From sequence record MH791411.1: a stretch of 64,000 nt of DNA; one strand, given 5' to 3'. Below, in pieces: positions 1,511-54,538 of this stretch; positions within the stretch are counted from its first letter, which is position 1, and each line of letters opens with the position of its first letter. A program made the position numbers and the translations under genes. The notes under the pieces are model-generated. The model was not told the origin of the DNA. It searched no databases and worked only from the letters and a program-made list of their open reading frames with translations. The DNA is from Escherichia phage Ecwhy_1.

Positions 1511-1517
1511 ATAAATA
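1511..1517 (+). promoter_or_regulatory. Late-promoter-like ATAAATA motif upstream of giant ORF
   Basis: cATAAATAaat lies 36 nt upstream of the ATG at 1554; same motif at similar spacing before several other structural genes. Confidence 0.4.
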
Positions 1518-1553
1518 AATCAAATGAATGAACGAATTATATGGAGTCCAAAA

Positions 1554-4500
1554 ATGACTAATAATTTTAAGTTTCAACCTACACAGATGGCTGAAGCAGT
1601 ACAGAAGAAGCTTTTCATAAAAAGATTGCCTGAGTGGATGCAAGGCTTAGAAGATATTCAGAAAGTCAGTGATGATGTTATCCAACAATGGTTTAATCCG
1701 GCTGAAAACGAATTAGTTGACGGCTACATTGGTGACATGGGTTCTCCGGCAGCAGCAGGGAACATCTTCTTACACGAGTCAACAGTCGCACGTCAACTAT
1801 ATCAGTTGTCCACTGCGTATGTCTCAAGAAATGATGACTCCAGCATTCGTTCAATTCAATTTTATGATGATCTAGTTGGCTATATGAATCATTACGGTGC
1901 ACTAACCGAAAATGAAAGCCGTTTGTTTAATGGTAAGTTCTATTCATGGACCCCACCAATTAACCCAAATAAAATGAACAACTACAGTTCATACCTATGG
2001 GATTCCAAGAATAGCTATAATATCACAACTCCAGATTATATTGTAATGGAACGTGGTGCAGAAAATGGTAACACTTGGTCACTACAAAACTTCTGGTACA
2101 CATTAGGTGAAACTTTAGAAGATGGTACTATCCTAACTGAAGAACTAATGCAAGATTCCCGTTTTGTTCGTGCTCGTGCACCAATTATCGAATACAATAA
2201 AAATATCGAACTAATGAACTACGGTACTAAATTCCGTGGGACAGTTGATTTGTTCTCTGATATTATTAAACCTGAAGATATCGTACAAAAAGATATTAAC
2301 AGCGGTATACGTATTGATGGTATTATTCCACAAGATGGTATGCGTATTCTTTTCACCAGTATTGGTAACAATGGTGAAAACAACCGAATTTATAAAGTAT
2401 ATGTTAAACGTATGCAAGATGGAACACGTGTGTATGGTCTAGCATTAGATCCAGACGAAGAATCTGAAAGCCGTCCGAGTGGTGAACCACAAGATGGTGA
2501 CGTAGTTCTTATTATCAAAGGTAATGAATTTGGTAACAGTTCCATGTATTGGGACGGTTCTCATTGGATTCAAGCACAGTCTAAAACTTCTGTGAACGTA
2601 TTTCCACAATTCCAATTGTATGACCGTAATGGTGTTAAACTAAACAACACTACTACCTATCCATCAAGTACTTTTACTGGTTCTTCACTATTTGGTTTTA
2701 AAATTAACTATAATTATGCAACTGATAGCGTTTATGGTTATAATATTGAACTAGGTGATTACAATTATTACACATATGAGAATTTCCTACAATCAACTCG
2801 TTATACTTACGAGCATTTGGGTGTGGAAGTTGAAATTGATGGACTATATTACTATAACGTAATTGGTGAAGGTAATACAATGAACCTAGAAACTGATTGG
2901 GTTCGTAGTACTGAATACTCCAAACAATATGTTAAACAAACTCCACAGGTTGAACGTACAGTAATGTTCCGCGTGTTCAGTACTGTTTATGACATGGAAA
3001 GTTTCAAAGACCCAGTTGAAGGAATGTATGCTTATGTAATTGAAGTTGACAGAACTTATCAATATTACAAAGCAGAACGTGAAACATATCTTGATTGGCA
3101 TGTTATCGTTGGTGATGGGGTACAAAGCGTTAAGTACAATCATACATTTGAATTGGCACAAAAAGTACTAGATAATTCTGATGATATTATCGAACTAGTT
3201 GTTGATGGTGTGGAAATAAAAGAATACACCAAAACTGTAGTTAATAATCAAGTACAAAGTATTACAATTGATAGCTCTGTTGATTTGGATGAAGATTCTG
3301 TTGTACAAATCAGAACTTATAGTAGCACTATCACTCCTAATAAAGAGTTGGGTGCATATGAAGTTCCAATTAACCTACAAAATAACCCATATAATTCAAA
3401 CATTGAATACATCAACCAAGGTGATTACACCCTGCACTTCCAAGATATTATTCAAAAGAATATTACATCTGGTTCTGCTGATGACTTTAACAATTACGAA
3501 GAACGTTTGGCTGCTGGTTTGGTTAATAATGGTGTAGGCACTAAAATTATTCAAAACGAAGCGTCCATGTTACCACTAATGGCACATACCGCTAATGAAG
3601 ATATTGATTTGTTTGAATCAATCATGTTTATGCAAGCAGAATACTTCCGCTTCATTAACAAGTTCAACACTCAAATGCTTCGTTTGTATGAAGAAGACCC
3701 AAGTGCTTTTCTTGGTAATAGTGCATCAAACATCGTAGATGCGATTCTAACAGCTATTAATATGGGACGTGATAGTACATTCCCATTCTACTATGACAAC
3801 GTTGCAAGCACTGCTGGGTTTATTCGTGCATTTGTCCCACCAACTCCACAGTTCTTGGGTATTTTGCAAGCTTATACACCACAAAAAGCAACATTCTTAA
3901 CTGCTGGTAGTAAATCTAGCTGTTATAATATCAGTCATACTGGTATTATTTCAAAAGCATACCGTGTTATCAATGGTGTTGATAAAATGGATGACGTAGT
4001 TTTTGAATTGGAAAATCGTATCTTTAATAGTATTGATCTTACTTTCAAGGATATTGATTATAAACCAGTACTAAACAGTGAAGACCTATTCCCAACTCCA
4101 TATTTCACTGGTACTGATTATAGTGCAGAAGAAAAGAAAACTCTATTACTACGTGGTTACATTAACTTCACAGCAACCAATGGCATTAGTAACAGTACTC
4201 ATGATTATGATGCAAATAACTGGAGAACTTGGAACTATACTGGTAGTTATTATGTTGTTGATGGTCAACGTACTGAAATTCCTGCTCGTGGTTCATGGCG
4301 TGCAATCTATACTGACCAATATGGCACATATCGTCCAGCAACCCATCCGTGGGAAATGATGGGCTTCTCTCAACGTCCTACTTGGTGGAACCAAGAATAC
4401 GAACCAACCGCAGTTCAAGTTGGTGAACGTGAGGGTGATGTTGTTTATGTGTATGAAGCACTAGTAATGAATGAAAATGGTGATTTGGTCCCAAGTGGAT

Positions 4501-54481: not shown

Positions 54482-54531
54482 ATTAAATCCTCCAAAAATA
54501 ATTGGTTATTCGAATTATATTCGTATAGTCT

Positions 54532-54538
54532 TATTTAT
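54532..54538 (-). promoter_or_regulatory. Late-promoter-like ATAAATA motif for sheath gene
   Basis: Minus strand reads aATAAATAag about 50 nt upstream of the sheath ATG. Confidence 0.35.

Follow-up and report, generated by a model that had tools for sequence, protein, structure and literature searches.

TAAATA elements upstream of virion genes in a jumbo coliphage are probable late promoters of the T4 gp55 type

Results

Probable late-promoter elements in a structural gene region

We examined a 64,000-nucleotide (nt) stretch of DNA from Escherichia phage Ecwhy_1 (MH791411.1), referred to here as the window, for the short sequence TAAATA, which recurs upstream of its structural genes. The window contains genes for the baseplate, a giant virion protein, fibre, tube, sheath, and adaptor. 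Over an 8-kilobase (kb) stretch, its identity is 99.3% with Escherichia phage Turkey3 (361 kb) and 98% with other Asteriusvirus-like jumbo coliphages; the value falls to 86% with PBECO4 and phAPEC6, and to approximately 70% with RaK2, GAP32, CBB, and their relatives. The Turkey3 counterpart of the window lies at approximately 182.4 to 118.4 kb in the reverse orientation, and a Turkey3 genome assembled from annotated pieces was used for whole-genome tests of the motif. Start codons were picked by ribosome-binding site, and the gene caller agreed with the Turkey3 annotation at all 18 of 18 genes checked. The gap is the number of bases from the end of TAAATA to the start codon, and the zone used for the window comprises sense positions 22–65 nt before a start codon.

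An original prediction had named eight TAAATA sites, with gaps of 29–36 nt and a longer gap of about 50 nt at the sheath gene. All eight are in place, with measured gaps of 31–36 nt at seven sites and 50 nt at the sheath. The leading A that had been included in the motif, (A)TAAATA, was found at six of the eight; 13918 is a G and 50695 a C. A further eight comparable sites lie in the window, at 23893, 28975, 45131, 47234, 47756, 51768, 56402, and 58170.

The first of the sixteen probable late-promoter elements (aTAAATA; 1512–1517, plus strand) precedes the gene for a 3323-amino-acid (aa) virion protein (1554–11525, phrog_10938; gap 36 nt). Its predicted transcription start (+1) is near 1523, and a terminator-like hairpin (1482–1499) with a T-run lies directly before it; at the Turkey3 orthologue the terminator ends 4 nt upstream of the motif. 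The element at 13919–13924 (plus strand) precedes a structural gene (13956–15452, phrog_11591 virion structural protein; gap 31 nt). The divergent spacer in which it lies (13848–13955) also carries a sigma-70 consensus (TTGACA-N16-TATAAT) for a minus-strand ClpA/heat-shock-like gene (11559–13847). Two elements are arranged back to back, that at 19600–19605 on the plus strand serving a tail protein gene (19642–20769, phrog_13565; gap 36 nt) and that at 19564–19569 on the minus strand serving an operon that starts at 19532 (genes 19035–19532, 18417–19025, and 17304–18404; gap 31 nt). Farther along the plus strand, elements are found before the gene for a 1644-aa tail fibre (element 23893–23898, with a terminator hairpin before it; gene 23958–28892, phrog_4549; gap 59 nt), before its 1899-aa paralogue (element 28975–28980; gene 29042–34741; gap 61 nt), and before a 654-aa gene (element 35639–35644, again with a terminator hairpin before it; gene 35679–37643; gap 34 nt). 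The two giant fibre paralogues have a duplicated promoter and leader (23893–23957 and 28975–29041; TAAATAta[t/a]gTATATTAACAA ... GGAGGG..ATGTACTCG), and both leaders have the unusual length of approximately 60 nt.

The remaining elements are on the minus strand. Those before the tail genes are at 50689–50694 for the tail-tube paralogue (tube 2, 49878–50654; gap 34 nt), approximately 9 nt past a terminator at 50727–50704; at 51466–51471 for the tail-tube gene (tube 1, 50744–51430; gap 35 nt); and at 54532–54537 for the tail-sheath gene (51818–54481; gap 50 nt), where the predicted +1 is near 54526. Between the tube 1 and sheath elements, that at 51768–51773 follows a terminator (51811–51790) and precedes a small gene (51588–51734; gap 33 nt). 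The head-tail adaptor gene (55579–56370, phrog_211 adaptor Ad2) is preceded by an element at 56402–56407 (gap 31 nt), and a virion protein gene (44105–45097, phrog_15988) by one at 45131–45136 (gap 33 nt) within the 3′ end of the upstream gene. Two elements are candidate internal promoters, one at 47756–47761 before a virion protein gene (47194–47727, phrog_14802; gap 28 nt) and one at 47234–47239 in coding sequence (gene 46645–47190; gap 43 nt), which is weaker than the others. The weakest site, a possible element at 58170–58175 before a small gene without an assigned function (57881–58123; gap 46 nt), overlaps the upstream stop codon. The genes downstream of the window sites thus encode sheath, tube, virion structural, tail, tail-fibre, and adaptor proteins, and their sizes and order appear to fit the virion proteins identified by mass spectrometry in phAPEC6.

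Distribution of TAAATA in the window and in the Turkey3 genome

Relative to dinucleotide-preserving shuffles, TAAATA is depleted in the window, with 38 copies compared to 88.5 ± 9.0 expected (z = −5.6). Nevertheless, 16 of these 38 copies fall in the sense zone, which makes up 1.86% of strand positions (binomial P = 3e-18); for the 14 other A4T2 hexamers, 7.3% of the copies in the window are found there (Fisher P = 1e-8). No antisense TAAATA was found within the window zones. A check for enrichment over the full genome had been suggested with the original prediction, and when run on Turkey3 it returned TAAATA as the top hexamer before start codons despite its depletion. Turkey3 contains 193 copies of TAAATA on both strands, the lowest count among the 15 A4T2 hexamers (range for the rest, 487–695 copies), yet at 22–42 nt before start codons it is the commonest of all 4096 hexamers, being present in the sense orientation at 52 genes and in the antisense orientation at 2. 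The gap distribution in Turkey3 peaks at 25–39 nt.

The motif also distinguishes classes of genes, this being evaluated for genes with an upstream spacer of at least 40 nt. TAAATA precedes none of the 71 spacer-bearing genes in the early-gene region of Turkey3 (1–56 kb), compared to 24 of 52 in the structural/replication region (124–240 kb; Fisher P = 2e-11). It precedes 12 of 13 genes in the RCC1-like gene array. This array, of approximately 12 RCC1-repeat genes at 337–357 kb, is annotated as 'E3 ubiquitin ligase HERC1 / regulator of chromosome condensation', and each of its genes is preceded by a separate terminator, then TAAATA-N3-TATAAT, then a strong ribosome-binding site; based on this arrangement, they are predicted to be late genes that are transcribed singly. 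Overall, a motif that is avoided except at one position, in one orientation, and before one class of genes looks like a promoter under selection.

Architecture of the sites

To define the architecture of the sites, we aligned 63 non-redundant Turkey3 sites that had been selected on the TAAATA core. The absence of a −35 element, as claimed in the original prediction, is borne out by this alignment: each position 14–25 nt upstream of the motif holds less than 0.1 bit of information, and the best TTGACA matches at 16–18 nt spacing are distributed like those at random genome positions. A scan of 49–57 kb with a sigma-70 pattern yielded 26 sites compared to 30.6 expected, no excess over shuffles. 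The base before TAAATA is A in 51% of the sites and is weakly informative; otherwise only TAAATA itself is informative. At the sixth position past the motif, 78% of the sites have a purine and 2% have a C, and T4 late transcripts start at this spot relative to TATAAATA (−13 to −6) (PMC7892883). The conserved sheath instance, tATAcGAAT, has an A at the predicted +1. We also considered a TATA-like box 3–4 nt after TAAATA as a second element; over the 63 sites, what is left of it is a weak preference for A/T near the predicted start. We therefore read the A/T-rich stretch after TAAATA as initiation region and leader, with no separate box.

Promoters of the sigma-70 type form a separate class in Turkey3. 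Pairs of the TTGACA/TATAAT type precede 80 genes, of which 2 are shared with the TAAATA set, and the TGnTATAAT class precedes 37 genes, of which 3 are shared; these sigma-70-type classes precede non-structural genes. Within the window, TGnTATAAT is found before the genes starting at 55499 and 40090. A 316-nt spacer before a MoxR-like ATPase gene (43014–43329, minus strand) contains two tandem, near-identical gTTGACA-N17-TATAATgacc sequences, followed by a terminator-like hairpin and a third TATAAT. The spacer has no annotated open reading frame and no Rfam match (a scan of the whole window against Rfam was likewise without a match), and short early transcripts are a possible product of it. A middle-promoter motif, 'TGAAACG', has been reported for CBB and GAP32; in Turkey3 it showed no clear positional pattern and was dropped.

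Intrinsic terminators are frequently found just before the motif. A terminator-like hairpin with a T-run ends 0–17 nt before TAAATA at 20 of 70 Turkey3 sites compared to 5 of 146 control genes (P = 2.6e-7), and an independent pattern scan found the same terminators before the tube and small-gene sites. Transcription must consequently restart within the 25–60 nt between terminator and ribosome-binding site, and the only conserved element in this interval is TAAATA.

Hairpins that mask the ribosome-binding site

At the sheath gene, sequence upstream of the promoter is predicted to pair with the ribosome-binding site (54485–54548, minus strand). The 5′ arm AAAUCCUUCAA (54548–54538) abuts the promoter and is complementary to the ribosome-binding site UUGGAGGAUUU (54495–54485). 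The late RNA, with a predicted start 6 nt past the motif, lacks this 5′ arm. RNA reading through from upstream has a folding energy of −21.8 kcal/mol (z = −5.2), compared to −5.2 kcal/mol for the predicted late RNA, in which the ribosome-binding site is free. The 8-base-pair stem is kept in the nine phages listed below, C-to-U changes preserving G·U pairs. At the adaptor gene, the TAAATA site at 56402 lies in the hairpin loop, the arms AGCACCUC (56415–56408) and GAGGUGCU (56383–56376) sequester the ribosome-binding site, and a U-run follows; the read-through fold has an energy of −17.0 kcal/mol (z = −5.0) compared to −1.5 for the late RNA. In these RNA folding models the read-through RNA would be untranslatable and the promoter-initiated RNA translatable. 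Arms that lie upstream of a promoter and pair with the ribosome-binding site are sensible only if the late RNA starts between the arms. The effect is modest genome-wide, a gain in ribosome-binding-site accessibility of more than 0.4 from the predicted +1 being found at 15 of 70 sites compared to 13 of 147 controls (P = 0.016).

The sheath late leader contains in addition a small hairpin (ACGAAUAU(A)AUUCG; 54506–54522, minus strand) a few nt from the predicted 5′ end. It is kept in the nine phages, with one compensatory change from C-G to A-U in Yersinia phage fHe-Yen9-03, and may act as a 5′ stabiliser.

Conservation in related phages

We compared the sheath, tube 1, and tube 2 promoters of nine phages: that of the window, PBECO4, A4, Hallingskeid, Munch, GAP32, RaK2, CBB, and fHe-Yen9-03. 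TAAATA is invariant before all three genes in these phages, which represent at least five genera. The upstream flanks have diverged freely, that of tube 1 among them, and the transcribed leaders are partly conserved. In the syntenic 50 kb of RaK2, the zone contains 13 of 40 TAAATA copies (P = 5e-13), and ten of the window sites have an orthologous copy there. The ten include the elements at 1512, 13919, 19564, 19600, 35639, 45131, and 56402. The annotated start of the RaK2 adaptor gene (position 6827 of the examined locus) looks miscalled relative to its promoter and hairpin.

The arrangement extends to Vibrio phage 2.275.O, which encodes a protein 49% identical to the gp55-like protein described below. 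In this phage TAAATA precedes adaptor, sheath, tube, and fibre genes, and non-structural genes are preceded by TGTTATAAT. A tube-like gene of the same phage is preceded by three tandem copies of TAAATActgaa (locus ~26770–26810), which could be a triple late promoter.

A gp55-like sigma factor and a sliding clamp

The original prediction had suggested that the phage encodes its own late sigma factor outside the window, and a homologue of T4 gp55 was found in Turkey3 approximately 9 kb past the window's left end. This protein, XMR01236.1 (191432–192370; 312 aa), is annotated as 'RNA polymerase', and its gene adjoins those for gp47 and gp46 homologues. It matches phrog_12791, 'sigma factor for late transcription' (1.4e-152), and phrog_234, the T4 gp55 family (1.5e-16); in the reciprocal search, T4 gp55 matches the RaK2-like family phrog_12791 at 4.8e-7. 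Direct comparison with T4 gp55 by BLASTP gave 3e-4. Single-sequence searches with the protein against Pfam and PDB returned noise only, so that a family profile was needed. With a profile of 19 sequences, the sole significant PDB match was T4 gp55 (7d7c_F, 4.2e-7), the alignment being in two pieces that place residues 2–25 on 2–25 and residues 148–245 on 22–118. The gp55-like protein has a sigma region-2-like helical domain and a long helix-loop-helix. A conserved insertion of approximately 120 aa separates helix 1 from helix 2 throughout the family, at the place where sigma-70 has its non-conserved region. At 275–290 aa, most family members are shorter than XMR01236.1, whose annotated N-terminal stretch contains a TGcTATAAT promoter; judged from the sequence, the true start is probably Met34, with this promoter just upstream.

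Residues with assigned roles in T4 gp55 were also compared. The pockets for the −12, −9, and −8 adenines involve N13, L54, R57, F86, H95, Y97, and T99, and the β′ clamp helices of RNA polymerase are bound by E70, D74, and E77 (PMC7892883). N13, F86, Y97, T99, and E70 are invariant or nearly so in the gp55-like family, and D74 is kept in Turkey3. Conservative changes in the gp55-like protein are L54 to I, R57 to K, H95 to F, and R114 to K, and E77 is not kept. The C-terminal tail is not conserved in the family.

Of the T4 late-transcription proteins gp55, gp33, and gp45, for which the original prediction had proposed a homology search, gp55 was found by sequence, a clamp with the PCNA fold was found by fold only, and gp33 was not found. 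Closely following the DNA polymerase gene of Turkey3 is a gene (214138–214869) for a 243-aa protein that is annotated 'sliding clamp' and assigned to a PHROG without known function. The protein has no sequence or profile similarity to T4 gp45 and no sequence match in Pfam or PDB. Structure models were built on close database homologues that are 89–90% identical to the Turkey3 proteins. The clamp model has a predicted local distance difference test (pLDDT) score of 91.2, and all of its top Foldseek matches are PCNA clamps (probability 1.00, template modelling score ~0.7); on the basis of this model, a gp45/PCNA-type sliding clamp is encoded. Searches of the Turkey3 proteome with T4 DsbA and RpbA by phmmer gave nothing significant, and small Turkey3 proteins with LDFL-like or aromatic-pair C-terminal tails, such as might be gp33 analogues or clamp partners, included no convincing candidate.

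An observation apart from promoters concerns palindromes. AGTACT, extended as (C)AGTACT(G), occurs at 133 sites in the window and at 981 in Turkey3 compared to 122 expected, an 8-fold excess; the next most enriched palindrome is 2.2-fold. The AGTACT sites are mostly intragenic and are spread genome-wide. Several palindromic hexamers (CCATGG, CAGCTG, AGGCCT, and AGCGCT) have zero copies compared to 37 expected.

Discussion

Our analysis indicates that TAAATA is very probably the −10-like element of late promoters read by a phage-encoded sigma factor of the gp55 type. The late-promoter interpretation advanced in the original prediction is supported by the enrichment of the motif, by the class of genes it precedes, by its conservation, and by the homology of the sigma factor. 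In the T4 late promoter, TATAAATA, the bases equivalent to TAAATA would be those from −11 to −6. The gp55-type sigma, its own gene apparently placed behind a TGnTATAAT extended −10 promoter, would bind the host RNA polymerase core and recognise flipped-out adenines of the non-template strand, so that no −35 contact would be needed, and transcription would start at a purine approximately 6 nt past the motif. The resulting late units would serve sheath, tube, baseplate, fibre, adaptor, and other virion genes, many of them beginning directly after an intrinsic terminator. In some units the sequence upstream would pair with the ribosome-binding site, with the consequence that only the promoter-initiated late RNA would be translated. 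We infer the sigma factor that reads the motif, the exact start site, and the late timing; for Asteriusvirus and RaK2-like phages, a search of the literature turned up no mapped start sites, no in vitro transcription, and no data on timing, and this counts among several points that weigh against the interpretation.

The other such points concern the promoter, the genes, and the factors. Conservation does not extend to the two leading bases of the T4 octamer, the T at −13 being unconserved and the A at −12 present in only 51% of sites; T4 gp55 inserts position −12 into a deep pocket (PMC7892883). A few sites precede genes of non-structural or unassigned function. The gp55-like protein has no clamp-binding motif of the LDFL type (SLDFLYE in T4) and ends approximately 4 residues past the second helix of the helix-loop-helix; in T4 this motif of gp55 is dispensable for basal transcription (PMC7892883). 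A phmmer search with T4 gp33 against 654 Turkey3 open reading frames gave nothing better than E = 0.12. gp33 is small and fast-evolving, and could be too diverged for detection. With no gp33 detected and no clamp-binding motif on the sigma, the T4 activation mechanism is not simply transferable. Finally, the phage has a gene for a second sigma factor, a member of the sigma-70 family, and recognition of the motif by this protein is conceivable.

An alternative explanation is that TAAATA is a −10-only promoter read by this second phage sigma (Turkey3 308471–309436) or by host sigma-70. The second sigma is a 321-aa protein with Pfam regions 2 and 3 in which region 4 was not detected at E ≤ 0.1, so it might not need a −35 element, and genome papers on this phage group usually mention only an RpoD-like sigma. 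However, TAAATA lacks the final T of the −10 hexamer that sigma-70 proteins require, and a sigma-70-type factor is better matched with the separate TTGACA-N16-18-TATAAT and TGnTATAAT class, which overlaps the TAAATA set at just 2 of 80 and 3 of 37 genes. The motif is instead the core of the T4 gp55 element, and the gp55-like protein keeps the residues of the adenine pockets. We consider recognition by a sigma-70-type factor to be improbable.

A second alternative places the signal in RNA, with TAAATA functioning as a processing site or translational enhancer in the leaders of structural genes. Strand specificity and a fairly constant distance from the start codon would also be expected of a leader-RNA element. 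Arguing against this, 20 of 70 sites lie 0–17 nt past an intrinsic terminator, so little upstream RNA reaches them, and a spacing before the start codon that varies over 22–65 nt is looser than a translational element would suggest. The purine preference 6 nt downstream of the motif is as found at a start site, and the anti-Shine-Dalgarno arms just upstream of the motif make regulatory sense only if the late RNA starts downstream. The presence of a dedicated gp55-type sigma also counts against an RNA-level role, which we judge to be highly improbable. That the pattern might be a functionless by-product of AT-rich intergenic DNA, in which other AT-rich hexamers also precede genes, has a negligible likelihood and is refuted by the statistics, as the hexamer is the rarest of its composition genome-wide yet the commonest before start codons, is oriented 52 to 2, is absent from 71 equally AT-rich early-gene spacers, and is invariant in nine phages amid changing neighbours.

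Recognition by a gp55-type sigma agrees in many respects with what is known of T4. Both systems have a TAAATA core without a −35 element and a purine start, predicted here, 6 nt downstream, with the element found before virion genes and rarely elsewhere. Both have a gp55 of the same fold, with conserved adenine-pocket and RNA polymerase-binding residues and a gene beside those for gp47 and gp46, and a trimeric-type (PCNA-fold) sliding clamp is encoded in Turkey3 as in T4. Promoters inside hairpins that mask the ribosome-binding site are also found in T4, at genes e, soc, 49, and I-TevI (PMC3014915). The differences are that six, and weakly seven, of the eight T4 promoter bases are conserved here, that the Turkey3 sigma has the insertion of approximately 120 aa and lacks the C-terminal clamp motif, that gp33 was not detected, and that the clamp does not resemble gp45 in sequence. 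The failure to detect gp33, the missing clamp-binding tail, and the family-wide conservation of the insertion would be compatible with a self-sufficient variant of gp55 in RaK2-like jumbo phages, in which the insertion replaces activation by gp33 and clamp and late transcription is not mechanically coupled to replication; we regard this as possible, if rather doubtful.

The T4-like cyanophages S-PM2 and Syn9 offer a further comparison. They encode a gp55 homologue, and their genes homologous to T4 late genes are preceded by a shortened motif, NATAAATA, the first base being free (PMC2984593). In the cyanophages, however, both gp33 and gp45 homologues can be detected by sequence (PMC2984593), whereas here gp33 was not found and the clamp was recognised by fold only.

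Closest to the present system are CBB and GAP32. Buttimer et al. (2017) described in CBB the consensus ATAAATA at 35 places before structural genes and noted its resemblance to the T4 late promoter (PMC5259590); according to the same paper, the motif had also been predicted in GAP32 (Abbasifar et al. 2014, as cited in PMC5259590). Homologues of gp33 and gp45 were not found in CBB, which does encode a gp55-like sigma, CBB_244 (PMC5259590). The motif, the lineage, and the orthologous structural genes are thus the same as here, as are the gp55-like sigma and the failure to find gp33 (PMC5259590), and at the sheath and tube genes the promoters of CBB and GAP32 can be aligned base for base with the window's. 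The CBB study differs from ours in that MEME was applied to upstream regions only, without depletion or orientation statistics, a cross-genus footprint, or a structural test of the sigma, and in its statement that there is no gp45 homologue (PMC5259590), whereas we found a PCNA-fold clamp. In the searchable literature on RaK2, phAPEC6, fEgEco12, and Sharanji no late promoter is mentioned, the most being an RpoD-like sigma, and there is no report of the motif in E. coli members of the group (Asteriusvirus) or in RaK2. The RNA-seq paper on PA5oct gives sigma-70-like motifs only. The motif and sigma were thus already predicted for the relatives CBB and GAP32, and the discovery is minor, the finding real. 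What this work adds is quantitative support, a footprint across genera, structural confirmation of the sigma, identification of the clamp by fold, and the masking hairpins.

These results provide a usable map of late transcription units for phages of 350 kb in which more than 80% of the genes have no known function. A gene with TAAATA 25–60 nt before it is probably late or virion-associated, and the sites help in the choice of start codons, for example in the Turkey3 gp55-like gene and the RaK2 adaptor gene, both of which look mis-started. The gp55-type late promoter is extended from T4-like phages to a very distant lineage of jumbo phages, including a marine Vibrio phage. A lineage that has an extra domain in its sigma, and in which the T4 co-activator was not detected, offers a natural test of whether coupling to the clamp is essential for transcription of this kind.

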